Virus record (IMG/VR): IMGVR_UViG_3300049027_000047
Location: 4,559-68,558 of that record
Strand: one strand, 5' to 3'
DNA: 64,000 nucleotides
Source of the DNA: a virus
The notes beneath the pieces are model-generated. The model was not told the DNA's origin and made no database searches. It saw only the letters and a list, made by a program, of their open reading frames with translations. This document shows positions 720 to 63,066 of this stretch, piece by piece. The first letter of the stretch is position 1, and each line of letters starts with the position of its first letter. A program made the translations under genes and the position numbers.

Positions 720-988
720 GCTAGTGGATTGATGATTCTAAGTTCCTGTTTGAGTGATCGGACCTCCAGTTGCAGCTTGAGCACCTCATTACGGAGGTTC
801 TGCATCTGGACGAGCAAATCTGTCACGACAGAATGCTCAGGACGGCGGTTGATCTTCCTTTCCATTCGGTCAAGAACACTTCCAATCCATCCAGCCCCCA
901 AATACAAAGGCAAAATAGACCAAACACTGGCCGTTCCTGAAACCAGGTCAAAAGCAACGCAACAAGCAAGGAGAATGAATTTATTCAC
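716..988 (-). CDS. hypothetical membrane/coiled-coil protein
   Basis: 4-nt overlaps with both neighbours; hydrophobic N-terminus. Confidence 0.6.
   Translation of the reverse strand: MNKFILLACCVAFDLVSGTASVWSILPLYLGAGWIGSVLDRMERKINRRPEHSVVTDLLVQMQNLRNEVLKLQLEVRSLKQELRIINPLA
819..832. repeat. dispersed palindrome copy 1 TCTGTCACGACAGA
   Basis: matches TCTGTYRYRACAGA; inside CDS. Confidence 0.9.
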
Positions 989-1194
989 TTGATTTCCTCC
1001 AAGATAAAAGGTTGAAAAGACCGTCCCTCAACACGGTAAGGGAGTTGATTGGCAGCATAGGCTACTCTCCAGGCATCCCGGTTGTCTTTGGTGGTCCCAG
1101 CCTTGGGGAAGCAAAGCCTCCGCTTGGTGAGATCCTCTGCAAAGCAGTCCGGCAGAACGGAGGTAAAGGCGAAGTGGTTGAACTCAGTCTTCAC
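985..1194 (-). CDS. hypothetical protein
   Basis: coupled ORF in leftward operon. Confidence 0.55.
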   Translation of the reverse strand: MKTEFNHFAFTSVLPDCFAEDLTKRRLCFPKAGTTKDNRDAWRVAYAANQLPYRVEGRSFQPFILEEIK

Positions 1195-1559
1195 AATCCT
1201 TCCCCCTCTGTGTAGGTGATCTGGATGCAGGCGATTCGGTCAAATCGGTCAAATACAACATTTGAATTCGCCAATTCTTTCGTCGGATAGGCGTAACTCG
1301 TTCTACCTTCTGGGTAGATGTTGAGCCACTTCGTATGTTTCATCGGGGCCATGAAGAGGTCGTTGGGAGAAGAGGCTTTGGAGTCGTACTGGAGACCAGT
1401 GTCAAATCGTGAACAAACAAGACCGTCAATGAGGCAGACAACCTGATCCTCTTCTCGGGTCTCAGGCACATGCGCGATGAACTTCGCATGTCTTCCATCA
1501 CGGGTTTGGATGGGGTGGCCTTCTTGGGCCAGTTTCAGGTCAAAAGGGATGAGTTTCAT
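1191..1559 (-). CDS. conserved phage hypothetical protein
   Basis: PFDLKLAQEGHPIQTRDGR...DLFM...WLNIY motif seen in many phage small proteins; start refined to ATG 1559. Confidence 0.65.
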   Translation of the reverse strand: MKLIPFDLKLAQEGHPIQTRDGRHAKFIAHVPETREEDQVVCLIDGLVCSRFDTGLQYDSKASSPNDLFMAPMKHTKWLNIYPEGRTSYAYPTKELANSNVVFDRFDRIACIQITYTEGEGL

Positions 1560-1615
1560 AATGGATTCAAAGTGTTCAGGTTGTGCGTATCTACGACGCA
1601 CCCCGGATGCAAATG

Positions 1616-1789
1616 CTAGACCAAGAGGGTCACGTTCTGGCGATGCTGGAGGTGGCGCTGGATGTTCTTCCAGCGACGGTAGTGATTGTCGGTGTCCTGC
1701 TGAAGTTCAGGAGTCATGCCGTTTTTTCGGCGCTCATGAAGGCGGCGTTCCTTTTCGGCCCAGGTCTTGACTTGTGTATGATGGAGCAT
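1616..1789 (-). CDS. small hypothetical protein
   Basis: MLHHTQ... with A/C-rich leader like neighbouring genes. Confidence 0.45.
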   Translation of the reverse strand: MLHHTQVKTWAEKERRLHERRKNGMTPELQQDTDNHYRRWKNIQRHLQHRQNVTLLV

Positions 1790-1878: not shown

Positions 1879-2505
1879 CTAGCAAAGCATTTTCAGCATG
1901 ACCGTTGCCGTGTTGGTATTGGACTCTTTGAACGCTGATCCGGGGAGTTGAATCCATTCGGAGCAGAGATGCCGAAGGGCCTTTTCCCTGTGGGCGGTAT
2001 CCATGCAGATGGCCACAAGGACGCCCGGTTTCACAAACTGCCGCGCATGAAGAATGTGCTGGATGTCTGAGCGCATGTGAAAGGGAGGATTCATCGCCAC
2101 CACATCGAAGGTTCCTGCTTCTTCTGGTGTGACAGTGAGGAAGTCCCTCTGAAGAATCCGAACGGCTTCCCGGTCCTGAGTGAACAACTCCCAGCAGCAA
2201 TCAGGCGACTGCTCAACCGCAACAACTTCTGAAGGTGAATGTACAGCCAGAGCATCCAGGATGCGCCCTAGGCCCGCAGAAGGCTCAAGAACACGCATTC
2301 CTACAGAGACTCCAGCCAGAGCCACCAAATCTGTTGCAACAGAAACAGGGGTCTGAAAGAGCTGGTAAGCAGTGACAGCGCGGGGAGCAGTGCCGTTTTC
2401 CTTGCGGTTCCTGATTCCCACGAAGCGGCCCCGCATGTCATCCATGCGAAAGCCTGCTTCGTCATTTTCCATGCGGAGTGCATGGAGGCGGTGAAATCCA
2501 CTCAT
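1879..2505 (-). CDS. class I SAM-dependent methyltransferase, probably N6-adenine DNA
   Basis: motif I VLEPSAGLG, motif IV AMNPPF; ATGA-coupled to the DUF3560 gene. Confidence 0.8.
   Translation of the reverse strand: MSGFHRLHALRMENDEAGFRMDDMRGRFVGIRNRKENGTAPRAVTAYQLFQTPVSVATDLVALAGVSVGMRVLEPSAGLGRILDALAVHSPSEVVAVEQSPDCCWELFTQDREAVRILQRDFLTVTPEEAGTFDVVAMNPPFHMRSDIQHILHARQFVKPGVLVAICMDTAHREKALRHLCSEWIQLPGSAFKESNTNTATVMLKMLC
2330..2343. repeat. dispersed palindrome copy 2 TCTGTTGCAACAGA
   Basis: exact motif inside methyltransferase CDS. Confidence 0.9.
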
Positions 2506-4185: not shown

Positions 4186-4207
4186 TTGATTCGTCAACAA
4201 GAATCTA
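4186..4207 (-). promoter_or_regulatory. leftward promoter -35 (TTGACG) inside a GATT-N10-AATC inverted repeat
   Basis: TTGATT cgtcaacaag AATCTA. Confidence 0.55.
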
Positions 4208-4606
4208 CGCATTGTTAGAAGAGTCCTCTTTTCCTTCAGGTCCCAGGGATTCCAGAGCTGGCCCTAGTCCTCCTTTTTGGGAGGATAGAGTCCTGAACCA
4301 GAGAGCCGTGGTTGAGGTGGTGTCGAAATTGAAGCGTTGGTCGCGCTTGATTCCTCCGGTGGGTTTGCGTCCAGCGTTTGGGCGTTTACCGCCTTTGTTG
4401 TGGGTGGATTTTAGGTGCTTACGTAGAGATTTGAGCGTTGCAATGGCCAGAGCAGTGGAGGCTTCTGGGTCTTCGTCAACGAGACTGGCGCTTTCCACGC
4501 GCACCTTGCGGCGGCTGGCAATCTTCACGGCCTCATTACAATCCCACGCCCTCAAACGGAGCGTGGTTTTTCCGTCGTTTCCGGTGACGGTCCAAAGTGG
4601 CTTCAT
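4205..4606 (-). CDS. putative DNA-binding protein
   Basis: NKGGKRPNAGRKP basic motif followed by an RHH-like strand-helix. Confidence 0.5.
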   Translation of the reverse strand: MKPLWTVTGNDGKTTLRLRAWDCNEAVKIASRRKVRVESASLVDEDPEASTALAIATLKSLRKHLKSTHNKGGKRPNAGRKPTGGIKRDQRFNFDTTSTTALWFRTLSSQKGGLGPALESLGPEGKEDSSNNA

Positions 4607-4669: not shown

Positions 4670-4731
4670 CTCGTAGGATGGGCTTAACCATTGCTGATGG
4701 CTCTCAGAGCGGTGTTGATATGGGTAGAGGG
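4670..4731. repeat. 62-bp exact direct repeat, copy 1
   Basis: identical to 6114-6175. Confidence 0.95.
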
Positions 4732-5010
4732 GTCTTCCCAAGAGGAAGCGAGCCGTGCAGATGCCAGCCATGTCTGGGCCTCAGAGGCGATCCAGTCCCC
4801 AAGGAAGTCGGAGAACGTCTTACCGGGCCGGAAGTTTGGAACATCGTAGTCCAGAGCTTGGGTTTTGCTCAGGATCTGGAATGACTCCCGGTCCGACTTG
4901 GTGGCGCGGGGCCGGACATGATAGAGGTGTCCATTGAAGGACAGCACAGGGTCAATAACCTGGCTGAACAGGAGGGCCTTTGCGGCGGTGTGTGGGCAGG
5001 TGGTTCTCAT
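4684..5010 (-). CDS. hypothetical protein
   Basis: ORF in leftward arm; its 3' end is the 62-bp repeat. Confidence 0.55.
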   Translation of the reverse strand: MRTTCPHTAAKALLFSQVIDPVLSFNGHLYHVRPRATKSDRESFQILSKTQALDYDVPNFRPGKTFSDFLGDWIASEAQTWLASARLASSWEDPSTHINTALRAISNG

Positions 5011-5052: not shown

Positions 5053-5066
5053 TCTGTCATGACAGA
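5053..5066. repeat. dispersed palindrome copy 3 TCTGTCATGACAGA
   Basis: exact motif, intergenic. Confidence 0.9.
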
Positions 5067-5086: not shown

Positions 5087-5734
5087 CTACAGGGCCATTT
5101 TTCTCTTAATGTCCTCTGGAATAAGCGCAATTACCTCGTTGCGCTTAGCTTCCATGCTGTCCTCGTCCCAGCTTTCTGGATACTCTCCGCTGGTCAAGAG
5201 ACGAAGATGCGGAGCCTCCACCCAAGATGTTAGAAACTCGCCCTCGCTTTTGAGCGATTCAATCCTGTAGAGAATAGCCTCCCGTGCATCGAAGGAGCCA
5301 ATCAGAACACCATCCGTGAATCCGCCGCTGACTTGCGCGGGCCAATGAGAGGCGTCCTTCATACGAAGGTTGAAATGCACATCGCCTCCATTCATAAAGC
5401 CATGAAAGGTGTCAAACACCAGAAAAAGTCCATCATCGTGCCACAACCCGTATTGCTTTTCGCCTTCCGATCCGCTTTTGAATACGGCTGGACGCTCCCA
5501 CAGGATTTTAAATCCAGCCCCCAGAACGATCGCCATGTAACGCTCGACGGGCGTCATAAAGCAGGTGTCTCCGTTAGCAGACAGGATTTCATCCTTTCTC
5601 TTTCCATCTTCACTTCCAAGAGCCATCCCTAGCCAGACGACTGATTCGTCCTCATGGTAGGTTTTTCCGATGATCTTTTCAGCTGTGGCAAGCGGATCAC
5701 GGTTGAGTAGGTAATCTAGTTCGCTGTTTTTCAT
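5087..5734 (-). CDS. hypothetical protein
   Basis: 215-aa ORF with globular composition. Confidence 0.65.
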   Translation of the reverse strand: MKNSELDYLLNRDPLATAEKIIGKTYHEDESVVWLGMALGSEDGKRKDEILSANGDTCFMTPVERYMAIVLGAGFKILWERPAVFKSGSEGEKQYGLWHDDGLFLVFDTFHGFMNGGDVHFNLRMKDASHWPAQVSGGFTDGVLIGSFDAREAILYRIESLKSEGEFLTSWVEAPHLRLLTSGEYPESWDEDSMEAKRNEVIALIPEDIKRKMAL

Positions 5735-6062: not shown

Positions 6063-6091
6063 ATACTAGCTAAGCTATTAGATGATGTCAA
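6063..6091 (-). promoter_or_regulatory. sigma70 promoter with TAGCWWWGCTA operator (6067-6077)
   Basis: TTGACA-17-TAGTAT. Confidence 0.8.
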
Positions 6092-7997: not shown

Positions 7998-8113
7998 TCA
8001 GATTGACTATACAAAGAAAGTATGCTCGCTCTGAATCCGTCATAACTCCTTGATCCTGTACGTAGATATGCTAGAATGGATGGAGTGAAAAAAGCTGGGA
8101 GAGGCAAAATAAA

Positions 8114-8127
8114 TCTGTTGCGACAGA
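8114..8127. repeat. dispersed palindrome copy 4 (AAA)TCTGTTGCGACAGA(TTT)
   Basis: exact motif, intergenic. Confidence 0.9.
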
Positions 8128-12142: not shown

Positions 12143-12156
12143 TCTGTCACAACAGA
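12143..12156. repeat. dispersed palindrome copy 5 TCTGTCACAACAGA
   Basis: 6 nt upstream of ATG 12163. Confidence 0.9.
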
Positions 12157-12162: not shown

Positions 12163-12420
12163 ATGACACAAGAACAACGAGAAGAGATTGAAGAACTTAT
12201 CGGAATGATTGTTGCAGGCCAAGGGACGAGTCAGGCCCTTTATGCAGAGGATTTGCTTTCACTGGCCAGCTTCGCCCGTCAGCAACTCAACCTGCGGGTG
12301 GATGGGGAGAAGCTGAGGCAGGAAATTTGGAAGAGATTCACGGCCAACATCAAGCCCAAGCACAACGCTGAACTTGAAGCCCTCGTCATGGAATGCCTCA
12401 CTACGGAGGAGAAGTTTTAA
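12163..12420 (+). CDS. hypothetical protein
   Basis: coupled ORF. Confidence 0.55.
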   Translation: MTQEQREEIEELIGMIVAGQGTSQALYAEDLLSLASFARQQLNLRVDGEKLRQEIWKRFTANIKPKHNAELEALVMECLTTEEKF

Positions 12421-13658: not shown

Positions 13659-14057
13659 ATGAAAAACCTCGTCATACTCTATCGGGCCTCCCAGTTCATC
13701 GTCCACAGATTCCACAACATCACCAAAGGACCGTCGTTCTTCCAAGACCACGAGTTCTTCGGAGACCTCTACCCAGCATACGAGACTGCCTACGACCAGA
13801 TTGTAGAGAGAATGATGGGGCTGGATCAGAAACTGGACCTCAACGCCATCAACACCGAAGCCGCCAAAACGGCCTCAGCATTCACCGACTCCTCCCCAGA
13901 GAGCATGTTCCGGCAGCTCCTGAAGATCGAGAAGACCTTGCAGGAAAATCTCACCAAAGAGATCCCCAAAGCCACCCAAGGCACTGCCAACCTGCTGGCC
14001 CAACTGGCAGATGACTCAGAATCCAGGGTGTACAAGATCAAGCAACGGCAGGCTTGA
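13659..14057 (+). CDS. dps: Dps-like ferritin-family protein
   Basis: HxxHNxxKGxxFFxxHExFxxLY...DxIxER ferroxidase pattern. Confidence 0.75.
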   Translation: MKNLVILYRASQFIVHRFHNITKGPSFFQDHEFFGDLYPAYETAYDQIVERMMGLDQKLDLNAINTEAAKTASAFTDSSPESMFRQLLKIEKTLQENLTKEIPKATQGTANLLAQLADDSESRVYKIKQRQA

Positions 14058-14081
14058 CCGGAACAATAGCTTTGCTAATAT
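14054..14081 (+). promoter_or_regulatory. promoter with TAGCTTTGCTA operator (14067-14077) heading MTase/GT cluster 1
   Basis: TTGACC-16-TAATAT. Confidence 0.7.
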
Positions 14082-14094
14082 CAGGTCCTGTAAA

Positions 14095-14108
14095 TCTGTT
14101 GCAACAGA
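14095..14108. repeat. dispersed palindrome copy 6 TCTGTTGCAACAGA
   Basis: 6 nt upstream of ATG 14115. Confidence 0.9.
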
Positions 14109-14114
14109 AAACGC

Positions 14115-14618
14115 ATGAGTGAAACCGCTGCCGCCAGACATATTCTGGCCCCTTACTGCAAAGGACTTGGACTGGACCTCGGTTTCGGAGGGGACAAGGT
14201 TGTGCCAGAAGCCCTATCCTTCGACCTTCACCAGAAATACACGCACGTAGGGGGTGACGCCCAGATCCTGCAAGGGGACTGTCGAAACCTGTCATTCATC
14301 TGCGATGGGGTGTTGGACTACTGCTACTCCAGCCACCTTTTGGAGGACCTGTGGTTCCATGAGTTGAAGCAGACGCTGGCGGAGTGGAGACGGGTCCTGA
14401 AACCGGGAGGACTGCTTATCACCCTCTGCCCAGACCAGCAGGTGTACTCTTTTCACTGTCAGAGGACAGGCCAACCCTACAATGAAGCACACAAAGAGCC
14501 CACGTTCTCCCTGTCCACATTCACAGAGGTAGCTCGCTCGGTCGGCAACTGGGAGACGGTTCTGGAGATCCCTCTGTTCAACACCTACTCGTTTGTCAGC
14601 ATCCTTCGCAAGGCATGA
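14115..14618 (+). CDS. SAM-dependent methyltransferase (Methyltransf_11-like)
   Basis: GLDLGFGG, YSSHLLED, WRRVLKPGG. Confidence 0.85.
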   Translation: MSETAAARHILAPYCKGLGLDLGFGGDKVVPEALSFDLHQKYTHVGGDAQILQGDCRNLSFICDGVLDYCYSSHLLEDLWFHELKQTLAEWRRVLKPGGLLITLCPDQQVYSFHCQRTGQPYNEAHKEPTFSLSTFTEVARSVGNWETVLEIPLFNTYSFVSILRKA

Positions 14619-14697
14619 AGTTCTTCATCATCAGCCCTGATGCCCACGGGAGGGTGGATGGATGGAACCAATTCTGAAACACCTTGACCTTCTATGA
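14615..14697 (+). pseudogene. collapsed gene remnant (head and tail only)
   Basis: ATGA-coupled head MKFFIISPDAHGRVDG and out-of-frame ATGA-coupled tail WMEPILKHLDLL joined at GGATGGATGG. Confidence 0.45.
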
Positions 14698-15308: not shown

Positions 15309-15316
15309 AGCAACAC

Positions 15317-16039: not shown

Positions 16040-16040
16040 C

Positions 16041-17072: not shown

Positions 17073-17112
17073 GACTTGCAAATTAAAAGCTTACCTAGTA
17101 TTCTCAACTCCA

Positions 17113-30019: not shown

Positions 30020-30093
30020 AGGGACTTGGTGTAGTGGTAGCGCAATGGGCTTTGAACCCATCGGGACAAGTTCAATTCTTGTAGTCCCTTCCA
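30020..30093 (+). tRNA. tRNA-Gln(UUG)
   Basis: acceptor AGGGACT/AGTCCCT, anticodon arm ATGGG-CTTTGAA-CCCAT, T loop TTCAATT, CCA end. Confidence 0.9.
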
Positions 30094-30095
30094 AA

Positions 30096-30341: not shown

Positions 30342-30345
30342 TTTT

Positions 30346-47060: not shown

Positions 47061-47089
47061 TTGACCTTTTCTGGTAGCATTGCTATTCT
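47061..47089 (+). promoter_or_regulatory. lysis cassette promoter with TAGCATTGCTA operator (47075-47085)
   Basis: TTGACC-17-TATTCT. Confidence 0.7.
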
Positions 47090-48779: not shown

Positions 48780-48793
48780 TCTGTCGCAACAGA
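48780..48793. repeat. dispersed palindrome copy 13 TCTGTCGCAACAGA
   Basis: 3 nt upstream of endolysin ATG. Confidence 0.9.
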
Positions 48794-48796: not shown

Positions 48797-49405
48797 ATGA
48801 CTACCGAAGAGATCAAAGACATCCAGCGCAAGATTGGTGTCATTCCAGATGGAGAGTGGGGTAAAATCAGCAACACTGCCTGCCAGAAGTATCTGAAGGA
48901 TCTGATGGTCAAGTCTGGGCGATCCTTCCCCAAGCCGAAGACAGCGTCTTTCAATGAGTTCTGGGGGCCTCATGGAGTGGCTGGCGGATACACTCCCCCG
49001 ATGAGGAAGATTACCCTGCCATTCACTCTCTACCTGTACGGAGACAGGAATCAGCCTGTTCATTCTCTTCGTCCGCACGAGAAGGCGGCGGATGCGTTTC
49101 TGGAAGCGTTTGAGCACCTTGAGGCGCAATATCCTACTGAGGAGGCCCGCAACAAGGCTGGAATCACCATCTACGACGGTCTCTACAACCCACGGTTGAT
49201 GCGTGGCAGTTCCACTACTTGGTCAATGCACTCTTGGGCGATTGCCCTGGATCTAAACGCTGGCCCTAATGGTCTCCACGCTCACTGGCCCCGTAAGGCG
49301 GTGATGCCATTTGAGGTTTACGAGTGCTTTGCAAAAGCTGGAATCTCCAGTCTAGGGTGGTCCCAGAACCGGGACGCGATGCACGCAGAGGCAGTGGGCA
49401 TTTAG
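48797..49405 (+). CDS. endolysin, M15-family peptidase
   Basis: YNPRLMRG, SMHSWAIALDLN, DAMHAE; N-terminal IQRKIGVIPDGEWG peptidoglycan-binding-like. Confidence 0.85.
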   Translation: MTTEEIKDIQRKIGVIPDGEWGKISNTACQKYLKDLMVKSGRSFPKPKTASFNEFWGPHGVAGGYTPPMRKITLPFTLYLYGDRNQPVHSLRPHEKAADAFLEAFEHLEAQYPTEEARNKAGITIYDGLYNPRLMRGSSTTWSMHSWAIALDLNAGPNGLHAHWPRKAVMPFEVYECFAKAGISSLGWSQNRDAMHAEAVGI

Positions 49406-49942: not shown

Positions 49943-49970
49943 ATAGTAGCAAAGCTATGAGGAGTGTCAA
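49943..49970 (-). promoter_or_regulatory. promoter with TAGCWWWGCTA operator (49947-49957)
   Basis: TTGACA-16-TACTAT. Confidence 0.75.
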
Positions 49971-50629: not shown

Positions 50630-50795
50630 AGTTCAATTGTCTTTCTAGTTCTTGAATGAGAGGAATGCCAGAAGCAAGGCTGTCCCGAGGAATCCTCCAA
50701 GGAACATCACCATGATGAGGCAGCAGCCTCCTGTGCATCCATCCTGGGTGTCTTCTTCTGGTAGTGGGAGTCTGCGTGGCATGGGCATCAGAGAT

Positions 50796-50809
50796 TCTGT
50801 CGTGACAGA
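50796..50809. repeat. dispersed palindrome copy 14 TCTGTCGTGACAGA
   Basis: exact motif. Confidence 0.9.
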
Positions 50810-50922: not shown

Positions 50923-50950
50923 ATACTAGCTTAGCTACCATTCCTGTCAA
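50923..50950 (-). promoter_or_regulatory. promoter with operator (50927-50937)
   Basis: TTGACA-16-TAGTAT. Confidence 0.75.
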
Positions 50951-51822: not shown

Positions 51823-52332
51823 ATGAAGTACACTACACTACCAGAAGGCCATCGTTGGCACCTGCCTGAAGGCGTCCCCACTCCAGAAGGTTGGAGGCAT
51901 TGTTTGGAAGCGGAAGTCCGTGAGGGTAAAAATTGGGCGCTGAAATGCGTCTCTTGCAGGATGTGGTTTAAAGAACAGGGAAAGTGGTCTGAGGACGAGG
52001 ATTATTTTGGAAACTCTACAGACGTGACCTACATCGTCCCAGACACGACTCCCTTCGATATCCCAGAAGGTTTTGATGAGGAGGGCGAGATCTCTCAGGA
52101 GGAAGCGTTCAGGCATATTCCTCCTCGTCCGGCTACCAGAATGGCCAAGGACATGACTCTGCGTGAGCATTACGCAGGGATGGCCATGCAGGGAATTCTA
52201 GCAAGTCCAACTCCGTGGACTGCTGATTGTGAGGCATCCACACCCATGACATCTTGGAAGGATGTCGCCTCTGGCTCTGCCCAGATGGCAGATGCCCTCA
52301 TTGCAGCCCTCAACCAGAAGGAGGAAGTATGA
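51823..52332 (+). CDS. phage protein with C-terminal MTLRxxYAxxAMQG domain
   Basis: MTLREHYAGMAMQG...MADALIAAL, a widespread phage motif. Confidence 0.65.
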   Translation: MKYTTLPEGHRWHLPEGVPTPEGWRHCLEAEVREGKNWALKCVSCRMWFKEQGKWSEDEDYFGNSTDVTYIVPDTTPFDIPEGFDEEGEISQEEAFRHIPPRPATRMAKDMTLREHYAGMAMQGILASPTPWTADCEASTPMTSWKDVASGSAQMADALIAALNQKEEV

Positions 52333-52559
52333 ATTATAGCGTAGGCCCTGTAACTCCACTAGGGATTCCTGTGGAACATGACCAGCTATGGAAAGAGGTT
52401 GACCCTAGGTTTCATCGAGTGGTTAAAGTCGTTGGGTGGGATCGAGATAACGGGAAAATTCAACTGGAATGCAACAACCGATACACCTACGCCACACTCT
52501 CGCGCTTCAATGGCAAGAGGGGTGGATACGAACCCTACAAGAAGGAGGAGACCAAGTGA
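52329..52559 (+). CDS. hypothetical protein
   Basis: coupled ORF. Confidence 0.5.
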   Translation: MNYSVGPVTPLGIPVEHDQLWKEVDPRFHRVVKVVGWDRDNGKIQLECNNRYTYATLSRFNGKRGGYEPYKKEETK

Positions 52560-53041
52560 GCAAACAATACTGGAGACTGCTGGAGCCGGGAGAGTGCGTT
52601 CAGCGAGGGGATGAGTATCATCTAAAAGGAGAAGGTCCTTGGGTATCGGTGGAAGTTAATGACATTGGCGATGTGATTGATCACGGGCACGTTCCATACC
52701 GTCGCCGCATCACCCTCCCTGAACCTCAAGGCTGGATCTCTGTGAAAGAAAGGATGCCGACGAAGGAGGATGGGAACAAACAGGGGAACGTGCTGTGGCG
52801 CATGTCTTTTAAAGACGGAGACCGTAGATTGCGTCAAGGTTTGTGGGACACGGAAATTGACCCGTGCCTCACCCACTGGGTCGCTATTCCTGATGAGCCA
52901 GAAGACGAGTCAAACCCTGATGAGGAGGCGTTCGAGAAGTTTTGGAAAAAAGCAGGCGGTATATCATGGGGAAGAATTGAAGCTCTATCCATCTTCCTCG
53001 CAGGCCGGAAATCTGTTGCAACAGAAGGAGGTCAGCCATGA
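52556..53041 (+). CDS. DUF551-like protein
   Basis: WISVKERMP...THWVAIP. Confidence 0.6.
   Translation: MSKQYWRLLEPGECVQRGDEYHLKGEGPWVSVEVNDIGDVIDHGHVPYRRRITLPEPQGWISVKERMPTKEDGNKQGNVLWRMSFKDGDRRLRQGLWDTEIDPCLTHWVAIPDEPEDESNPDEEAFEKFWKKAGGISWGRIEALSIFLAGRKSVATEGGQP
53012..53025. repeat. dispersed palindrome copy 15 TCTGTTGCAACAGA
   Basis: 3' end of CDS, 12 nt before the next ATG. Confidence 0.9.
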
Positions 53042-53358
53042 CTCCCTGCTACATCTGCGGACGGCCCTTTGAGATGAAGGGGAACCGGAAATACACCTGT
53101 AGCCGACACTGTTCCAGAGAGCGGAATCTGGCCATAGCACGGCAAAACAGGGTCTATACAGCCAATGAGTATGACAAGCTGGGGATGAGGGCTGTGGAGG
53201 CTGTAAAAGGGCTGGAACCTGTCTCCAGACGCAAGAGGTCCATCATCATGGGGAGTTTCCTTGGTGAGGTGATGACCTTGGAGGATGAGGTGGCCATGGT
53301 GTTCAGTGAAGCCTCCCTCCTGGGCAGAGGTGTTCCTTACAGGGAGGTGATGGTATGA
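53038..53358 (+). CDS. C4 zinc-finger protein
   Basis: CYICG...TCSRHC. Confidence 0.6.
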   Translation: MTPCYICGRPFEMKGNRKYTCSRHCSRERNLAIARQNRVYTANEYDKLGMRAVEAVKGLEPVSRRKRSIIMGSFLGEVMTLEDEVAMVFSEASLLGRGVPYREVMV

Positions 53359-53693
53359 ACGAAGAAGATTTCATTTTAGAGCTTGATGAGAAGCCAAAAG
53401 AATGGAGACAAGTGGTCCGGGTGACTACCCGTTACTGGAGCGACAGGAGGGGTATCTACATGCGAAAAAGCCTTCTCTTTATGAAGAGAAAATCTTTTGG
53501 ATACAATGTCCTCAAAGAGGACAGCTCAAACATGGGAGCAGATGAGGTGGTGCCTCGCATTCTCAACTTGAATGAGGTTGAGGACGGACTGTACGAGCTT
53601 TATGTCGTCAATGAGGTTAAGGACTGGGAGACTGGGTGCGTAGAGGAGTGGGATTACAAGCTTTTCCCATATACTGAGGAGGTGGCGTCGTGA
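53355..53693 (+). CDS. hypothetical protein
   Basis: coupled ORF; DWETG motif. Confidence 0.6.
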   Translation: MNEEDFILELDEKPKEWRQVVRVTTRYWSDRRGIYMRKSLLFMKRKSFGYNVLKEDSSNMGADEVVPRILNLNEVEDGLYELYVVNEVKDWETGCVEEWDYKLFPYTEEVAS

Positions 53694-53989
53694 ACTGCAC
53701 CATCTGCGGCAAGGAGTTCCCCGGTAAACGGGTGGATGCCAAAACCTGTTCACCCAAGTGCAGGGTGGAGCACAACCGACAACGTGCGTTCTACCACCAG
53801 TCACGGTACGCCAAGGGAGAGAGGCAGTGCGACATTCTTCCTCCTCCCACCCGTGCTCAGAGGGAGAGGATGATGGAGGGCCTCTACAGGCTTGTTCTAA
53901 CCCCTTCAGATGAGATAACCCTGTTGTTTGGACAGGCGCAGAACCTAGGGAGAGGGATGCGCTACAAGGGAACGGAGGTGAGGCTGTGA
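53690..53989 (+). CDS. C4 zinc-finger protein
   Basis: CTICG...TCSPKC. Confidence 0.6.
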   Translation: MNCTICGKEFPGKRVDAKTCSPKCRVEHNRQRAFYHQSRYAKGERQCDILPPPTRAQRERMMEGLYRLVLTPSDEITLLFGQAQNLGRGMRYKGTEVRL

Positions 53990-54750
53990 ATGATGTACAA
54001 CTTTGGATTGGTGATTGCCTAGAACTGATGGATTCCATCCCTGATGGATCGGTTGATATGGTCATGTGTGACCTGCCTTATGGGACAACCCAAAACAAGT
54101 GGGACTCCATCATCCCGCTGGAACCTTTGTGGGCCACGTACAAGAGGGTTTGCAAGCCTAACGCGGCAATCGTGCTCACCGCTGCCCAGCCGTTCACAAG
54201 TATTCTTACATGCAGCAATCTGAAGGGGTTCAGGTATGACTGGACTTGGGAGAAGACAACCCCATCAGGGCACTTGAATGCCAAAAAGATGCCAATGAGA
54301 GCACATGAAACCATCCTCGTGTTCGCTCATTCTACGCCTAGATACTTCCCTCAAAAAACCTCTGGTCATAAACGTAAGTCGGCTAAAGCAGACCGATCTA
54401 AAAACCAGCCCAAATGTTACGGGTCTCAGAAAGGTCTGACCGTCTACGACAGCACGGATCGTTATCCAAGATCCGTTATTAAAACCAGCACCGACAGACA
54501 GAGGAGTAAATTACACCCTACCCAGAAGCCTGTGACATTGATGGAGTACCTCGTGAAGACGTACACACTTTCTGGGGAGACAGTCTTGGACAACTGCATG
54601 GGTAGCGGGACAACCGGTGTGGCCTGTATGAACCTTGGCCGCAAGTTCATCGGAATTGAAAAGGACCCTGACTACTTCAAGGTCGCCTATGATAGAATCC
54701 ATGGAGTGATTGAGGCAAACCGTAGAGTCAAGGAGGAGACGCTTCTGTGA
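53986..54750 (+). CDS. DNA N4/N6 methyltransferase (beta class)
   Basis: GDCLELM, DLPYG, HPTQKP, VLDNCMGSGTT. Confidence 0.9.
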   Translation: MNDVQLWIGDCLELMDSIPDGSVDMVMCDLPYGTTQNKWDSIIPLEPLWATYKRVCKPNAAIVLTAAQPFTSILTCSNLKGFRYDWTWEKTTPSGHLNAKKMPMRAHETILVFAHSTPRYFPQKTSGHKRKSAKADRSKNQPKCYGSQKGLTVYDSTDRYPRSVIKTSTDRQRSKLHPTQKPVTLMEYLVKTYTLSGETVLDNCMGSGTTGVACMNLGRKFIGIEKDPDYFKVAYDRIHGVIEANRRVKEETLL

Positions 54751-54893
54751 GTCTAGGAATGATGAGGAAATGCTCGGTCTGTGGTCGTGAATACAGCCAG
54801 TGGGCACCGAGGCAGAAGACCTGCACCAAGAAGTGTTCCAGAGAGAGGGCTAAACGCTACGACAAGAAATACCGGGAGAAGAACAAATCATGA
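54747..54893 (+). CDS. C4 zinc-finger protein (48 aa, not in ORF track)
   Basis: KCSVCGREY...KTCTKKCSRER; GTGA-coupled. Confidence 0.5.
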   Translation: MSLGMMRKCSVCGREYSQWAPRQKTCTKKCSRERAKRYDKKYREKNKS

Positions 54894-54917: not shown

Positions 54918-54955
54918 TTGACAGCAATACTAGCTAAGCTACCATCACCCGTCAA
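54918..54955. promoter_or_regulatory. overlapping bidirectional promoters sharing operator TAGCTAAGCTA (54931-54941)
   Basis: rightward TTGACA-16-TACCAT; leftward TTGACG-17-TAGTAT. Confidence 0.65.
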
Positions 54956-55173
54956 CCAATATTCTCTTCCAGATCCAATCCTCCCCTCCTGATGTCCACC
55001 AATCTCTCAGAGACATCAAAGTGTTCTCCCAGCATAGCATCTGTCCATCCTTGGTTGTAGAGGTCCAGAAAGGGTTTCTCAGGCATGAGGAACCCAGCTG
55101 CAAACCAGTTGGCCTCGATGTCCAAGGAACGCCATGGCTCTCCAAACTCTCCTCTAGGGTAGATGTGGGTCAT
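54952..55173 (-). CDS. IrrE/ImmA C-terminal fragment
   Basis: EANWFAAGFLMP...HFDVS; no HExxH. Confidence 0.6.
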   Translation of the reverse strand: MTHIYPRGEFGEPWRSLDIEANWFAAGFLMPEKPFLDLYNQGWTDAMLGEHFDVSERLVDIRRGGLDLEENIG

Positions 55174-55436
55174 GGGGATTCTGTTACGACAGATTTCGCC
55201 ATAGATGGGAATGCAGGGTCAAAGTAGTGTGTACGTCTCTCCAAGACTCCCTCCCATGCCATAGGATCAAAATCTCCCTTGGGGACTACGTGGGTCATCC
55301 CTTCCAGCCCGTTCAACCTCTCCTCCAGTTCCTTGGTGTAGGCGATCAGCTTGGAGAGCTTCCCTGCGAGGAGTATCTCTGAGGCCGCGTAGCCATGACT
55401 CTGAGGGTCGATTCCGATGGATTCTAGTGTGGTCAT
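55170..55436 (-). CDS. hypothetical protein
   Basis: coupled ORF. Confidence 0.5.
   Translation of the reverse strand: MTTLESIGIDPQSHGYAASEILLAGKLSKLIAYTKELEERLNGLEGMTHVVPKGDFDPMAWEGVLERRTHYFDPAFPSMAKSVVTESP
55180..55193. repeat. dispersed palindrome copy 16 TCTGTTACGACAGA
   Basis: gene junction. Confidence 0.9.
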
Positions 55437-55443: not shown

Positions 55444-55902
55444 TTAGGTGAGGTGGTAGGGAATGGTGTAGCCCATGGTTTTTGCCCAGAGGCCGTTTTT
55501 CTCGATCTTGTCGTGATGCTGGCGGCAAACTGCCATAAACAATTCTACCCGGAGGTAATTCTTGCCTCTTCGGCCTTTGTGATGCACCTCGGTAGCCGCC
55601 TTCTTGCACCTCTTCGCCTGACAGACCGGATTCTCCTCCAGAAAGACCTTCCTGAGCTTGCTGTACTCCTTCTCTTCCAGCTTGCGACGTTCAGACACCC
55701 TCCTGATGGGTTTTCTCTGGGTTTTGAGCGATCCTGGTTTCTTCTGAGGGTGATCAGTGCTGGAAGGCTTCCTGACGCGTCCTAGGGACTTCCTGCGCAT
55801 CTTCTCCTTGCCGCACAAAGAGCAGCGCAAGGTTATGATTCTCTTGGAATCTGTTGTGACAGATCCTGAGAGGGTAAAACGGTGGAGGCACTTGGGTTTC
55901 AT
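55444..55902 (-). CDS. HNH-like nuclease
   Basis: CQAKRC...EVHH...VCRQHHDKI. Confidence 0.6.
   Translation of the reverse strand: MKPKCLHRFTLSGSVTTDSKRIITLRCSLCGKEKMRRKSLGRVRKPSSTDHPQKKPGSLKTQRKPIRRVSERRKLEEKEYSKLRKVFLEENPVCQAKRCKKAATEVHHKGRRGKNYLRVELFMAVCRQHHDKIEKNGLWAKTMGYTIPYHLT
55850..55863. repeat. dispersed palindrome copy 17 TCTGTTGTGACAGA
   Basis: inside CDS. Confidence 0.9.
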
Positions 55903-57645: not shown

Positions 57646-58227
57646 TCACGCCCCCTCCTTTCCACCCAGAATCTCTGGACTGATTGCAAGAGGGATGTGA
57701 CCAACCTCCATATCAGCCAGTTCAAGGCATTTTTCAGTCGTCAAGGCTTGGAAAGGATTGCCGCTATCACCTTGGACCATTTTGTTGGCGTCGCTAATAT
57801 GGTTGGAGAGGGCTGCACTCACAATGTCACGAGCAGGGCCTACCGCCTCATTGCCTACGCGCTCGATAGCTTCGTTCCATCCGTACTCAGCCGCTTCATA
57901 TCGGTCATGAATGCCGCGATCTTCGAGGCCTGCGCCCATGCCCTGATGGTGATACTCCGGCGAGAATTCCAATGCTGACTCTACGGACAGCAGCGCCTCC
58001 CGAAGCCTGGCGTTCTCGGTCTTTAGTTTCATTAAAAATGCACCGACAACGATGTACTGAGAGCGGCCAAGGTATTTGGGCGACTGCGTATGCTCCTTCG
58101 GGAGGGCCTCAAACAAGCTGCTCCACTGTCCAAGAGCAGTCATTGCCTGCGCCTTCCAGTCCTCCAGTTCAGCGATCCTTGCTTCCTTCTTTTCCAGCAA
58201 GAGGAGGGTGTTTAGTTCTGGTTTCAT
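57646..58227 (-). CDS. coiled-coil phage protein
   Basis: contains GMGAGLEDRGIHDRYEA.EYGW motif. Confidence 0.6.
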   Translation of the reverse strand: MKPELNTLLLLEKKEARIAELEDWKAQAMTALGQWSSLFEALPKEHTQSPKYLGRSQYIVVGAFLMKLKTENARLREALLSVESALEFSPEYHHQGMGAGLEDRGIHDRYEAAEYGWNEAIERVGNEAVGPARDIVSAALSNHISDANKMVQGDSGNPFQALTTEKCLELADMEVGHIPLAISPEILGGKEGA

Positions 58228-58231: not shown

Positions 58232-58245
58232 TCTGTTGCAACAGA
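58232..58245. repeat. dispersed palindrome copy 18; perfect 22-bp AGATTCTGTTGCAACAGAATCT (58228-58249)
   Basis: 4 nt upstream of leftward ATG 58227. Confidence 0.9.
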
Positions 58246-58521
58246 ATCTCTCAGTTCAGGTTCATGGCCTCCAGCCCGGCAAAGATGAGTTCAAACAACC
58301 CTGCCAGACCCAGGATCAGCAGGATGATGAAGAGGCAGGTCTTCAGGGATTCGTTCATTTCTTTGGTTCCTCTCTTCTAATTTCTGACCACCTCCTCCAC
58401 GGAGGGGTGTTGTTGCTAAGCCATGCAGCAGCCTCAGACCATGTGGTGAATGGTGGAGACTGGTAGCAGGGCTGTCCGTTGACGGTCTTGCCTCTTGGTG
58501 GGTGAAGGATGGCGGTAAAGG

Positions 58522-58860
58522 TCATGAAATGTCAACCTCTCGGAGTTCCCAGCGCATGGCCTTCTCTCCCCGCTTCACTTTCACCTTGCGCCAGCCATGC
58601 ACAACGATCTTCCACCCAGCCTCACGGAGATGCTTAAGGGCCTCTGAATCCTGAATCTTCTGGATGCGGGCTGAGACGTTGGAGCCAGAGGTTGTCTGAA
58701 CGGCTACAGTCTCGCCGTTCCCTACGCAGAGAACGTCCACAAACCCATACAGGTCATTTCGGACCTTGGCGAACGGGTTCCAGTGCTCCACAACCTGAAC
58801 GAGGGGGTAAATCTTACGCAGGTGCTCCAGAGAGCGTTGAGTTGGCGAGTTCTTGGCCAT
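58522..58860 (-). CDS. PD-(D/E)xK nuclease, Holliday-junction resolvase-like
   Basis: RNDLYGFVDVL...VAVQTTS...VHGWRK. Confidence 0.65.
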   Translation of the reverse strand: MAKNSPTQRSLEHLRKIYPLVQVVEHWNPFAKVRNDLYGFVDVLCVGNGETVAVQTTSGSNVSARIQKIQDSEALKHLREAGWKIVVHGWRKVKVKRGEKAMRWELREVDIS

Positions 58861-59108
58861 CAGGACGCCTCCTCCTTTTCTGTCGTGACAGATTTTGCCA
58901 ACTCCTTCACCCTCTCGATTAATTCGGACTGCATGAGTCGCCCCTCAGGGTCCCCCAGAGCCTTCCTGATCTCATAGAGGCAGTTGATCTGGTTCATCTC
59001 CTGGTGTTGCGCTCCAGCGAGGAAGGCTGGTAGCCAGTGCTTGTACTTGTCGGCTGGAAATAGCTCCCTGCTCTCCAGCCACTTCTCGAATGCTTCTTCT
59101 GGGGTCAT
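58860..59108 (-). CDS. hypothetical protein
   Basis: coupled ORF. Confidence 0.55.
   Translation of the reverse strand: MTPEEAFEKWLESRELFPADKYKHWLPAFLAGAQHQEMNQINCLYEIRKALGDPEGRLMQSELIERVKELAKSVTTEKEEAS
58879..58892. repeat. dispersed palindrome copy 19 TCTGTCGTGACAGA
   Basis: 3' end of CDS. Confidence 0.9.
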
Positions 59109-59389
59109 ACGGTCTCCTTTCCGAGGGCTGCTTTAGCCTGTTTGATATAGCGTTTTGCCATGATAGGTCCTTCAACAGGCGTGCCTCCAGCCCTCCTGAA
59201 GTCTGCATGCTCGTCACAGAGCCAGATCATAATGCCCAACTGCTCCCTCAGTCTCAGGTTCTCCCTCGCTGCTTGCAGGAGTGCTGGAGCATAGTGGTGC
59301 AGGGATACCATTAAGTCTTCGTACCCATCCGCCTCCTTCTCTTCAGCATCCAGCAGGGCCTGTAGTTCGTCGATCAGTTCTTGGTTCAT
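59105..59389 (-). CDS. hypothetical protein
   Basis: coupled ORF. Confidence 0.55.
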   Translation of the reverse strand: MNQELIDELQALLDAEEKEADGYEDLMVSLHHYAPALLQAARENLRLREQLGIMIWLCDEHADFRRAGGTPVEGPIMAKRYIKQAKAALGKETV

Positions 59390-59673
59390 TCGTAATCCTT
59401 TCCAAGGGGGATAGGGTGGGTGTCGGCATCAAATCCCAGTTCAGAGGCAATATCCTCCATAAGGCACTGCCCATCATAGTTTGCCTCATCATACCGGATC
59501 AGGATGTCTGGGGCGTGCTCAACGTAAGTCCCCATATTCGCCCGCCTAAGCAGGTCGAATGCAGCACGAAGGAGGATGTCTTTACGGTTGGTTGCGTCCT
59601 CGTTCATGACCAGCTGGGCCTCGATTCCTCCGGGGGGTTGAGGCTGCAATGAAGGTGGACAAGTCTCCGTCAA
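59386..59673 (-). CDS. hypothetical protein
   Basis: LLRAAFDLL...YDEANYDGQCLMEDI. Confidence 0.55.
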   Translation of the reverse strand: MTETCPPSLQPQPPGGIEAQLVMNEDATNRKDILLRAAFDLLRRANMGTYVEHAPDILIRYDEANYDGQCLMEDIASELGFDADTHPIPLGKDYE

Positions 59674-59709
59674 TTAGTGCTTTCAGTGCTGCTGGGTTCA
59701 TATATTCGG

Positions 59710-59738
59710 ATACTAGCTAAGCTATTACACTCTGTCAA
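59710..59738 (-). promoter_or_regulatory. promoter with operator (59714-59724)
   Basis: TTGACA-17-TAGTAT. Confidence 0.8.
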
Positions 59739-61574: not shown

Positions 61575-62385
61575 CTTTGCGGAATACGAAGTCTTCGTCT
61601 GTGTACCCTTCTGCGCCTTCGGCCCAGTCCTTCTCGTTGATGACAGGGATGCCGCCGTAGGAGGACGCTGGCACGTGACGGCCATTCGGAACCTCATCCT
61701 CCCAGCGATTACCATTGAGCCATGTAGCAGCATGGGGTATGAATTGTCCGGCATCTTTCCGCCACTCTGGACTGGACTTCCATGAGCGGACTATTGCCAG
61801 CAAGGGTTCAATATCCGGGAGGGTTTTGCACTTGTTCCAAGCCTTCAAGGCATCCTGCTTCCCAACCTTCCTTGGGTACTCCTTCCAGAACTCCTCAAAA
61901 CCTTCCCTTGCTGGAGAAGCATCCTTTCCCTTTCCATTCCCTTCCTTTCCATTCCCTTCCTTTCCATTCCCTTCCTTTCCATTCCCTTCCCCTTTGCAGC
62001 CGTGGTCCACGCGAGTGTCACGCGTGATGCACGCGTCAATATCATTCTCAATCAACGGGTTAGGGATAGAAGAGTCAGACTCTCGATTATTGATCACTTG
62101 GTGCTTCGTGAAGCTTGGAATGTACCCGAAAAACATCCCTTTCGACTTGTACTTCACGACAAATCCACGCGTGGTCAACGCGTCAAGCACGCGTGAAAAG
62201 TCGATCTCATCATACGGAAGGATTTGAATTCCAAGCCTACGTGGCTCCCATTTGAATCGACCCTCCCTGTCTGCGGCGCACCAAAGTCCGATAAAGGCTA
62301 CCCTCAATGGCAAGGAGGACTCCTTTTCTGCCTCGAAGATTCCTTCATGAGTGAAGAACTCAGGCTTTATGGTTCGAATTCTCAC
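61561..62385 (-). CDS. phage replication initiator protein
   Basis: RIRTIKPEFF N-terminus; FEEFWKEYPRKVGK and HAATWLNGNRWED C-terminus; upstream of primase-helicase; GTG start. Confidence 0.8.
   Translation of the reverse strand: MRIRTIKPEFFTHEGIFEAEKESSLPLRVAFIGLWCAADREGRFKWEPRRLGIQILPYDEIDFSRVLDALTTRGFVVKYKSKGMFFGYIPSFTKHQVINNRESDSSIPNPLIENDIDACITRDTRVDHGCKGEGNGKEGNGKEGNGKEGNGKGKDASPAREGFEEFWKEYPRKVGKQDALKAWNKCKTLPDIEPLLAIVRSWKSSPEWRKDAGQFIPHAATWLNGNRWEDEVPNGRHVPASSYGGIPVINEKDWAEGAEGYTDEDFVFRKDETA
61930..61989. repeat. 15-bp tandem repeat x4 (CTTTCCATTCCCTTC) encoding EGNGK
   Basis: four exact copies. Confidence 0.95.
62008..62196. other. putative replication origin iterons
   Basis: ACGCG(T) at 62009/62020/62031 and 62167/62178/62189, 11-bp period, inside the initiator gene. 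Confidence 0.55.
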
Positions 62386-62748
62386 GGCAGCTTCCGGGTC
62401 CTTTCCAGTTTCTGTGCGCATGGCTCGCGCAATGGTTGTTGTTTGTTGCGCCGTCCAGCAACCGCTGTCGGGGTGATTCTGCGCTTACACTGAGCGCATT
62501 TGAGGGAGAGGTCTTTGGCCATAAAGGCAAAACAAAACCCTCAAGGGGATACTCCGAGGTTCTCATCCCTTTGACCGAGGAAAAAGTAACTCGGATTTGG
62601 GCCTACGAAGCGCCCCCTTGAGGGCATTGTGAATATGGCTTGGGCTATGTAGCTTTTTCGGACACCGATGAGAAGCGGTGCGTTCACAGGGAGCGCCCTG
62701 AGAACAGGATAAGGCTATACCAGCCGGAGAATCAGCACAAGGGGAAAT

Positions 62749-63060
62749 TCAACTCTGCTTGGCCTTCAACTCCTTCAGTTGAGCCTCATACCGGGCGATC
62801 CATTCCTTGTGCTTGGCGATGGCTGCTTCCAGACGGAGGATCTTCCCCATCCCGTGAGGGGCGTACTCCTTGTTCTTCCTGACTCCTCCGCACTTGGCGA
62901 GGTAGCGGGCCTTCTCTTGGGCGGTGCGGATCTCCTGGTGCTTCTCACAATGCAGTTTCCCTGGTGCGGCTGGGGAAGAGCACAGATGACAAAGCCCCTC
63001 CTTCTTGTGTTGGAGCTGCCATCTACGTTGGCGGGAGAGAGTGTAGGTGTTTTCTGTCAT
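62749..63060 (-). CDS. zinc-finger protein
   Basis: GLCHLC...HCEKH. Confidence 0.55.
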   Translation of the reverse strand: MTENTYTLSRQRRWQLQHKKEGLCHLCSSPAAPGKLHCEKHQEIRTAQEKARYLAKCGGVRKNKEYAPHGMGKILRLEAAIAKHKEWIARYEAQLKELKAKQS

Positions 63061-63066
63061 GACAGA
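63053..63066. repeat. dispersed palindrome copy 20 TCTGTCATGACAGA
   Basis: centred on an ATGA stop/start overlap. Confidence 0.9.

Follow-up and report, generated by a model that had tools for sequence, protein, structure and literature searches.

Cluster O mycobacteriophages (Corndog and its relatives) carry a 17-bp dyad repeat, TGTTCGG-NNN-CCGAACA, present in Corndog as 34 invariant copies plus three one-off sites; 14 copies are intergenic, 10 lie near the 5' ends of genes and 10 within genes, and the authors predict a dimeric DNA-binding protein with a role other than transcription initiation and leave the function unexplained (PMC4351075). Here we analyse a comparable array of 14-bp sites, TCTGT-YRYR-ACAGA (Y, pyrimidine; R, purine), in a 64-kb stretch of viral DNA, called the window below, which corresponds to bases 4559-68558 of a single 68,558-bp IMG/VR viral contig (IMGVR_UViG_3300049027_000047). 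Judged by its anatomy, this array is a further case of a known but unexplained kind of dispersed phage dyad repeat. The Cluster O repeat is the closest precedent, by likeness of anatomy and not of mechanism; it was missed among the analogies listed in an earlier note, made on this DNA from its letters alone. We could find no later explanation of the Cluster O repeat in a literature search.

The two arrays have much in common. Both genomes measure about 70 kb and hold the element in tens of copies, 34 in Corndog and 23 in the present phage; both arrays combine invariant inverted arms with a variable centre and few near-variants (three in Corndog, none here), and both are spread over the whole genome, between and inside genes (11 intergenic and 12 in-gene copies here). 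Neither is tied to SigA/sigma-70 promoters, neither phage is evidently temperate, and methyltransferase and glycosyltransferase genes lie beside the portal gene in both. They differ in layout, 7-N3-7 there versus 5-N4-5 with a YRYR rule and A/T flanks here; the TGTTCGGNNNCCGAACA motif is not shared, and the host there is Mycobacterium whereas the lysis cassette here is Gram-negative-style. Since sequence and spacing are different and no nucleotide or protein match was found in 50,697 phage records (tblastn with the portal-like protein and one methyltransferase), the likeness is one of kind, not of descent.

Two other mycobacteriophage systems come less close. The stoperators of Cluster A phages (L5, Bxb1), one of the analogies offered in the earlier note, are likewise short sites with hardly any variation, present in two to three dozen copies, mostly in short intergenic spaces of both genome arms and away from promoters, where the bound protein blocks elongating RNA polymerase (in part, PMC4351075). 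The analogy fails on symmetry and orientation and probably also on temperate lifestyle: stoperators are asymmetric 13-mers oriented with transcription and serve the immunity repressor of a temperate phage, whereas the present sites are symmetric and 12 of 23 lie in genes. No immunity repressor, integrase or partition gene was recognised among the 64 of 108 open reading frames (ORFs) covered by Pfam or PHROGs family scans; a truncated Peptidase_M78 (ImmA/IrrE-like) fragment is present. The start-associated sequences (SAS) and extended SAS (ESAS) of Cluster K are short motifs repeated 3-7 bp before many start codons and absent from the host genome, but asymmetric, with a Shine-Dalgarno core, in one orientation and confined to the non-structural half (PMC3203893). 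The element studied here is a palindrome, is near a start codon in 10 of 23 cases and extends to the structural genes.

Among better understood systems, the KorB operators (OB) of RK2 and ParB-parS-type sites are palindromes of 13-16 bp with about a dozen copies over a replicon of ~60 kb, some of them far from promoters, and the bound dimer acts at a distance. Here the sequence differs, the replicon is a phage and not a plasmid, and neither a ParB/KorB-family protein nor a partition ATPase nor a matS/NBS-type protein was found in the scanned ORFs. The 14-bp operators of the 434 type, those of the FNR/CRP type and the Gram-positive LexA boxes are bound by helix-turn-helix (HTH) dimers through two contacted arms separated by about 4 uncontacted bp, the deformability of which tunes affinity. 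They occur as a few clustered, mismatch-tolerant copies at promoters, whereas the present array consists of 23 dispersed perfect copies off promoters.

Scanning the window with TCTGTYRYRACAGA gave 20 exact matches, the first at 819 and the last at 63053; all 20 starts listed in the earlier note were recovered, and its figure of 0.004 expected copies is arithmetically correct. None was found in 100 dinucleotide-preserving shuffles. Three further copies lie in the first 4.5 kb of the contig (contig positions 161, 1720 and 4246), which brings the total to 23. When the centre was left free (N4) the window gave 21 matches; the additional one, at 30924 with centre GAAC, is probably due to chance, because its left flank is C-rich (CCCC) and 0.1 such matches are expected. 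Allowing one mismatch in TCTGTNNNNACAGA over the whole contig yielded just two extra matches, both without a YRYR centre; decaying copies, i.e. one-mismatch arms around a YRYR centre, are absent. The array is far beyond chance. Its gaps range from 647 bp to 11.9 kb with a median of ~2.2 kb over the contig. A minimum gap of at least 647 bp was reached by 0.46% of random placements; the coefficient of variation of the gaps is not unusual (p=0.23), the only departure from randomness being the lack of close pairs.

The 10 arm bases are identical in all 23 copies. The centre exists in nine versions, TGCA (seven copies), CACG, CACA, CGTG, CATG, TACG, TGTG, CGCA and TGCG, which are always YRYR, and the immediately flanking base is A or T on both sides of every site; these two rules, formulated on the 20 window copies, thus hold for the whole contig. 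The second flanking base is A or T in 22 of 23 sites on each side, and no conserved base was found beyond +/-3, whether the sites were read on the plus strand or oriented by gene direction. The full unit is therefore an 18-bp sequence, WW-TCTGT-YRYR-ACAGA-WW (W, A or T), worth ~28 bits. Since YRYR is its own reverse complement, the half-site is TCTGTYR and the two halves vary independently. Copy-paste of a unit is ruled out because the centre varies while the arms do not, and because the flanks share nothing beyond +/-3. The same base is often present on both sides of a site (A..A or T..T). This polarity was not significantly related to transcription direction (p=0.057) or to genome position (two-domain segmentation, p=0.21), and on the latter result the possibility that it serves as a replication or packaging compass was dropped.

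The position of the sites relative to genes, as delimited by a crude gene caller of our own (108 ORFs on the contig), is far from random. Eleven of the 23 are fully intergenic, versus 13.2% of positions (p=6e-5). Four others lie within the last 7-25 codons of an ORF, one straddles a stop/start overlap in which its central ATGA acts as both codons, and seven are deep within genes, including the 3074-amino-acid (aa) gene. Ten sites end 0-18 nt ahead of a start codon by our own calls (one of these ORFs runs off the contig end), the distance to a start codon being 0 to 332 nt over the whole set. Several spacers between genes, 23-28 nt long, contain little beyond the site itself, and two start-proximal sites are directly followed by AGGAGG. 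In-gene sites often fall in C-terminal tails or disordered linkers, one of which, in a 476-aa protein, has a predicted local distance difference test score of about 26-30. The preference for junctions and linkers, the location of several sites shortly before start codons and the use of different reading frames, all proposed beforehand, were borne out. The S-V-x-T-D/E frame is used by eight in-gene sites (SVATD, SVVTD, SVTTE, SVATE, SVVTE) and the L-[LS]-[QR]-Q frame by three (ILSRQI, NLLQQN, NLSQQN); the third frame, which needs Cys and AGA, is used by none. In 300 synonymous-codon shuffles, a control suggested by the earlier note, the mean number of in-gene sites was 0.2 and the maximum 2, versus 12 observed, so the enrichment stands. 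The sites are kept within coding sequence despite synonymous-codon freedom, which amounts to selection at the DNA level. The array is biased to gene junctions, and is dispersed rather than clustered. The sites of the window are the following (SAM, S-adenosylmethionine):

819-832: site, centre CACG; in a weak 90-aa ORF (716-988, minus strand), read as SVVTD.
2330-2343: site, centre TGCA; in a 208-aa SAM-methyltransferase-like ORF (1879-2505, minus strand), aa 55-59, SVATD.
5053-5066: site, centre CATG; intergenic, 20 nt past the stop of 5087-5734 (minus strand) and 42 nt ahead of the start of 4684-5010 (minus strand).
8114-8127: site, centre TGCG; divergent region between the leftward and rightward gene arms.
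12143-12156: site, centre CACA; occupies a 28-nt spacer, with a stop codon 8 nt before it and the ATG of 12163-12420 (plus strand) 6 nt after it.
14095-14108: site, centre TGCA; a methyltransferase-like gene (14115-14618) has its ATG 6 nt further on.
15962-15975: site, centre CGTG; SAM-methyltransferase gene, aa 216-220 of 240, SVVTD.
18130-18143: site, centre TGCA; aa 340-344, SVATD, disordered linker of the 476-aa GT-A glycosyltransferase/winged-helix protein (domains as predicted).
21364-21377: site, centre TACG; aa 72-76, SVTTE, acidic variable N-terminal part of a 382-aa scaffold-like protein.
27803-27816: site, centre CACG; 241-aa protein, aa 132-137, ILSRQI.
34449-34462: site, centre TGCA; 334-aa protein, aa 289-294, NLLQQN.
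36914-36927: site, centre CACA; 3074-aa protein, aa 774-779, NLSQQN.
48780-48793: site, centre CGCA; intergenic, with the ATG of an M15-peptidase endolysin-like gene (48797-49405) following after 3 nt.
50796-50809: site, centre CGTG; intergenic, a 47-aa ORF (50645-50788, minus strand) starting 7 nt downstream.
53012-53025: site, centre TGCA; at the end of a 161-aa ORF (last 9 codons, SVATE), AGGAGG directly after, ATG of a 106-aa zinc-ribbon gene 12 nt on.
55180-55193: site, centre TACG; at the end of an 88-aa ORF (last 7 codons, SVVTE), the 73-aa Peptidase_M78 (IrrE/ImmA-like) fragment having its ATG 6 nt downstream.
55850-55863: site, centre TGTG; intergenic, 49 nt upstream of a 118-aa HNH-motif gene (55444-55800, minus strand).
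58232-58245: site, centre TGCA; occupies a 23-nt spacer, the ATG of 57646-58227 (minus strand) coming 4 nt downstream; the flanks extend it to a 22-bp palindrome.
58879-58892: site, centre CGTG; at the end of an 82-aa ORF (last 10 codons, SVTTE), followed by AAGGAGG; a 112-aa gene (58522-58860, minus strand) starts 18 nt downstream.
63053-63066: site, centre CATG; the central ATGA (minus strand) is the start of a 103-aa ORF and the stop of a 192-aa ORF.

With its flanks, the site at 8114 forms a 20-bp inverted repeat (AAA...TTT) whose central TGCG lacks self-complementarity; a promoter-like match (8050-8077) precedes it by 36 nt.

Conservation could be assessed at the protein level, in relatives of 85-97% identity, for five sites, all of them in-gene or at a stop/start. 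This check, also called for in the earlier note, came out divided: four of the five are motif-compatible in relatives, and one, in the scaffold-like protein, has turned over (it is lost at 91% identity). In the 476-aa protein, SVATD is kept in a 97% relative and replaced by SVVTE in an 87% relative in which neighbouring residues have changed; the site-bearing segment is absent from seven more distant relatives. The 240-aa methyltransferase shows SVVTD or SVTTD in three relatives of 86-97% identity, SVTTD being found at 89% and 86%. Both changes, SVATD to SVVTE and SVVTD to SVTTD, leave the centre within motif-permitted RYR codons. In the 241-aa protein, LSRQ is invariant in nine relatives (85-99% identity). 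At the stop/start site (63053), relatives keep MTE..., ...KNLS and, where the ORF is called longer, KSVMTE. The phage itself is an uncultured soil phage; near-identical contig pieces (99%+ identity) occur in four further soil-metagenome runs, without base differences, and no RNA data set was found among the runs listed as carrying it.

The sites are not sigma-70 promoter elements, as they keep no fixed distance to -35 or -10 boxes and have no conserved position beyond +/-3. A separate set of ~12 host-type sigma-70 promoters, TTGACA-N9/10-TAGCTWAGCTA-GTAT, is present. None of the sites overlaps a TTGAC-N17-19-TANNNT promoter match, which agrees with what had been claimed; the distance from the 12 promoter matches to the next site varies from 14 to 6287 nt, and only one site is within 100 nt downstream of a match. 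This is the site at 14095, 14 nt downstream of the -10 of promoter 14054-14081 (TTGACC-16-TAATAT). It is the sole operator-like placement, and precedes the first gene of an operon running into the portal-like gene.

We then asked where else the motif occurs. In IMG/VR, a scan with AAATCTGTTGCAACAGA, the commonest 17-mer version, found 23 stretches with one site each, and the five longest of the contigs concerned also held a single site, for which reason these matches were taken as chance. A single-protein scan for loci related to that of the portal-like protein found none; alignment scans with the same protein gave 160 loci at 30-35% identity, from which the array is absent (three of them hold one TCTGT-N4-ACAGA). 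Nor was a comparable array found in any of four complete genomes (67-73 kb) of the wider family. Palindromes seen in portal relatives (GTCAAGAC-N-GTCTTGAC, TAGTGCAT-N-ATGCACTA and ACCGC-N4-GCGGT) were considered as lineage versions of the array and rejected, because they belong to promoter-like cassettes, 45-50 bp long, that lie close together within about 5 kb. In bacteria, species-representative genomes gave at least 120 loci; among the matches listed there was one site each, 84 were in long ORFs and no neighbouring gene recurred. Five whole bacterial genomes holding a site held only that one, and of 401 sampled Pseudomonadota genomes 63 had a match, with a maximum of two per genome, versus 31 genomes and a maximum of three for the reversed control pattern. 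With no more than two copies per genome in these 401 and the five others, a host-wide iterated repeat such as a repetitive extragenic palindrome, a highly iterated palindrome, an uptake sequence or a matS/SBS/NBS-type site was not seen. A literature text search for spellings of the motif found no paper containing them.

From the sequence, we infer that the 23 copies are duplex-DNA recognition sites of a two-fold symmetric (homodimeric), sequence-specific protein, most likely phage-encoded, a reading to which we give an even chance. The symmetric dimer is preferred because of the invariant arms, the self-complementary centre with its flexible steps, the A/T flanks, the selection within genes and the independence from promoters; the weakness of the core RNA hairpin (-3.7 kcal/mol) also speaks for it. 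Such a protein would act genome-wide rather than at promoters. Each monomer would read one TCTGTYR half-site in the major groove, the half-site centres being about one helical turn apart; the uncontacted centre would have to keep two flexible pyrimidine-purine steps, and the A/T flanks would be read via the minor groove or through bending. As ~28 bits far exceeds what is needed for 23 sites in a cell's DNA, the protein would see phage DNA only.

A dimeric protein had already been proposed in the earlier note: symmetry, selection and promoter independence fit that proposal, but the cognate protein was not found, and this is the first of several points that weigh against it. No CI/Cro, ParB/KorB, integrase or obvious dimeric operator-binder was recognised in the scanned ORFs, as the note had remarked, and the scans gave only weak HTH hints (E=0.006 and E=8e-4), a winged-helix-like C-terminal domain and zinc-ribbon paralogues. 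The -1 and +1 bases are complementary in just five of 23 sites versus ~11 expected, and such non-mirror flanks hint at some polarity. The invariance of the 10 arm bases in all 23 copies is sharper than in most operator families and would suit an enzyme too. The change from SVTTE to SVAAE in the 91% relative of the scaffold-like protein breaks an arm and is not motif-compatible. Lastly, a perfect stem in RNA or single-stranded DNA is automatically a DNA palindrome, so that only the pattern of the centre and the in-gene copies favour duplex DNA. Two proteins were looked at as possible binders. One is the following:

17113-18543, plus strand: candidate binder, 476 aa, modelled as a GT-A glycosyltransferase fold at the N-terminus, joined by a disordered linker to a C-terminal domain of winged-helix-like type.

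In the predicted structure this C-terminal domain (aa 418-473) has the order helix-helix-helix-strand-strand. The other, a 133-aa basic protein (4205-4606), gave in a single-sequence model a confident beta-beta-alpha-beta N-domain and a disordered C-terminal half, with no significant PDB fold match, by which a ribbon-helix-helix binder is neither supported nor excluded.

As for the role of the proposed dimer, once bound at cistron boundaries it may act on host RNA polymerase as a roadblock or insulator that works in either orientation, a symmetric counterpart of stoperators. This is the most speculative step and we hold it to be doubtful; it is put first because of the junction bias and the one operator-like site. 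Seven sites deep in genes, the symmetry of the sites and a phage without sign of lysogeny count against it. The next option, close behind, is that the dimer would mark or organise phage DNA (compaction, protection, loading of another factor). An unlikely but more novel reading is that the array is a 'self' code and not a device of gene regulation, its very high-information sites being landing places by which a phage protein would recognise phage DNA alone among the DNA of the cell and act on the DNA itself, by local modification, protection, compaction or loading of another machine. In a concrete version, the GT-A glycosyltransferase with a winged-helix tail (17113-18543) would dock on the palindromes; its operon begins with a promoter then a site, and its own disordered linker carries another site.

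Rather than duplex DNA, the recognised molecule could be RNA: a UCUGU/ACAGA stem with a 4-nt loop, bound by an RNA-binding protein or cut by an endoribonuclease, would serve translational repression or processing at cistron boundaries, with the Cluster K SAS as a parallel. Ten sites are at the position of a ribosome-binding site, two of them with AGGAGG next to them, the palindrome yields an identical RNA from either transcribed strand, a hairpin of -3.7 to -9.9 kcal/mol is predicted for all 20 window sites, and the A..A or T..T flanks have the polarity that a single strand would have. We nevertheless consider an RNA element improbable. With 2 G-C pairs and -3.7 kcal/mol in 12 of 20 sites, the core stem has little stability, and it never covaries; duplex recognition, unlike a loop, would lead one to expect a self-complementary rule such as YRYR; the seven sites deep in ORFs, where translational control would have no target, are still selected; the distance to start codons spans 0 to 332 nt, and the relation of flank polarity to transcription direction is not significant (p=0.057). 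With TTT after the site in just nine of 23 cases (plus strand as written), a weak core stem and a stem sequence that never varies, the sites also do not resemble intrinsic terminators or structured RNA.

Less probable again is a symmetric substrate for a DNA enzyme, which might modify the site, nick it or cut it with a 4-bp stagger, or act on it as a recombinase. The all-or-none character of the array, 23 perfect sites and no near-variant, is typical of restriction-, homing-type and modification enzymes, and a 5-N4-5 geometry with a deformable YR-rich centre resembles the sites of dimeric endonucleases. The phage encodes a 254-aa DNA methyltransferase of the N6/N4 type (phrog_67, E=3e-77), two HNH-type proteins and the glycosyltransferase fused to a DNA-binding-like domain, whose operon starts with a promoter followed by a site; the methyltransferase and the glycosyltransferase would be the candidate modifiers. 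However, the genome would not survive double-strand cuts at all 23 sites; a methyltransferase does not require that its targets be enriched, and no such enzyme is known to read 14-18 bp. No recombinase was found in the scanned ORFs, and the contigs of the four soil runs cross the sites without joints, although contigs cannot reveal nicks or modifications.

We think it decidedly improbable that the phage exploits or titrates a host protein with a 5-N4-5 operator, be it a global regulator, a repressor of the SOS type or a factor that organises the nucleoid. Palindromes of this format are usual for several bacterial regulator families, e.g. FNR-type and Gram-positive LexA boxes, no phage-encoded binder was recognised, and the phage depends on host-type sigma-70 promoters. 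Against this stand the bacterial counts given above: one site in each of the five whole genomes, at most two per genome in the 401 Pseudomonadota, which are a single phylum (63 matched versus 31 for the reversed control), and single sites without a recurrent neighbour gene among the matches listed from at least 120 loci. Finally, that the array has no function of its own, being either a tiny selfish repeat or, as with the highly iterated palindromes of cyanobacteria, a by-product of biased mutation or repair, is very improbable: iterated palindromes of another type do exist in the wider group (28 copies of CCCTAGGG, 18 coding, in the distant G412), but the present motif is 18 bp and not 8, its intergenic bias is strong (11 of 23 versus 13.2%), its centre changes in relatives stay motif-compatible, and the bacterial genomes searched show no excess.

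A number of other repeats were noted along the way. G412, a complete relative of 72.9 kb (loci L308-L311), has about 1.6 copies of its octamer expected against the 28 found, and its next commonest palindromic octamer, GCGATCGC, has six; this signal is of the highly-iterated-palindrome type, unlike the 18-bp array. The promoter-like cassettes of the portal relatives number 5-10 copies of 45-50 bp at L130/L131/L082 (2-9 kb upstream of the portal gene), L181 and L164/L165. Each includes a long perfect palindrome with a TTGACT -35-like hexamer on both strands; they are 200-1200 bp apart among small genes and resemble the mobile promoter/stem-loop cassettes of other phages. In the present phage, the ~12 sigma-70-type promoters share an unusual conserved palindrome in the spacer and extended -10 region (6063-6091, 14054-14081, 27386, 47061-47089, 49943-49970, 50923-50950, 51770, 54918-54955 and 59710-59738, and contig positions 2368 and 3125); at 54918-54955, where genes converge, two such promoters facing each other share one TAGCTAAGCTA in their overlap, and the cassettes of the distant relatives also contain TAGCTTA in the spacer. 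The TAGCTWAGCTA palindrome may be a second operator or mark a family-specific promoter class. In a ~1-kb stretch without a confident gene, adjoining the primase-helicase gene, four perfect tandem copies of the 15-mer CCTTTCCATTCCCTT (61929-61990) are followed by six short repeats containing ACGCG(T) (61990-62200), a possible replication origin with iterons. Upstream of the window, contig 2438-2653 is a 12-fold CGCCGACTCCGCC-type repeat which encodes a G/V-rich low-complexity ORF (P/T-rich on the other strand).

The genes recognised include those for a primase-helicase, an AAA_24 ATPase with DUF669, a ferritin/Dps-like protein, an HNH endonuclease and an M15 endolysin-like protein; no RNA polymerase was found in the scanned ORFs. 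A cluster of four tRNA genes (Gln-TTG, Asn-GTT, Pro-TGG, Arg-ACG) occupies 30020-30418. Upstream of the portal-like gene, 13659-18543 comprises the ferritin/Dps-like gene, three SAM-methyltransferase-like genes (assigned by motifs and a source name), a gene for a 314-aa protein of no assigned function and the GT-A glycosyltransferase gene. The 3074-aa protein (34593-43817) was considered as a virion RNA polymerase with hairpin promoters and rejected, since it lacks a D-x-D-x-D motif and has no sequence match in Pfam or the PDB. Hydrophobic and glycine-rich over its C-terminal ~400 aa, it is probably an internal virion or ejection protein. Three to four small zinc-ribbon paralogues (53038-53358, 53690-53989, 54762-54893 and 62749-63060) flank the DNA methyltransferase gene. 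They share C-x2-C-G ... C-[ST]-x2-C followed by a basic helix, and two of them have a C-terminal LGRG in common and a weak match to the zinc-ribbon modules of an HNH-endonuclease PHROG. At 54952-55436, the 73-aa ORF matches just the C-terminal third of Peptidase_M78 (E=2e-8), without the HEXXH region; its N-terminus (MTHIYPRGEF...) resembles the C-terminal part of the 88-aa ORF (MTHVVPKGDF...), which suggests a local duplication, and a site lies exactly at the junction. A recognisable Shine-Dalgarno motif was present within 18 nt of the start in 33 of the 108 ORFs, the strong AGGAGG sites being concentrated at 51904-54750 and 58251-59607.

To conclude, dispersed perfect palindromes that are neither promoters nor terminators nor lysogeny operators had, as far as we could find, been published once before, in 2015, for the Cluster O phages. 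A second, unrelated phage with a like anatomy and another sequence argues for a recurring solution and not the curiosity of one cluster, and provides a comparative handle. The rules of the present array (5-N4-5, YRYR, A/T flanks, two reading frames, no pair within 647 bp) are unusually explicit, and at ~28 bits the motif is long enough for the phage alone to carry it. Should the binder act on DNA and not on transcription, it would represent a new class of phage genome management; and if the 'self' code were true, the array would, together with that of the unrelated Cluster O phages, point to a convergent and so far undescribed way for lytic phages to manage their DNA.

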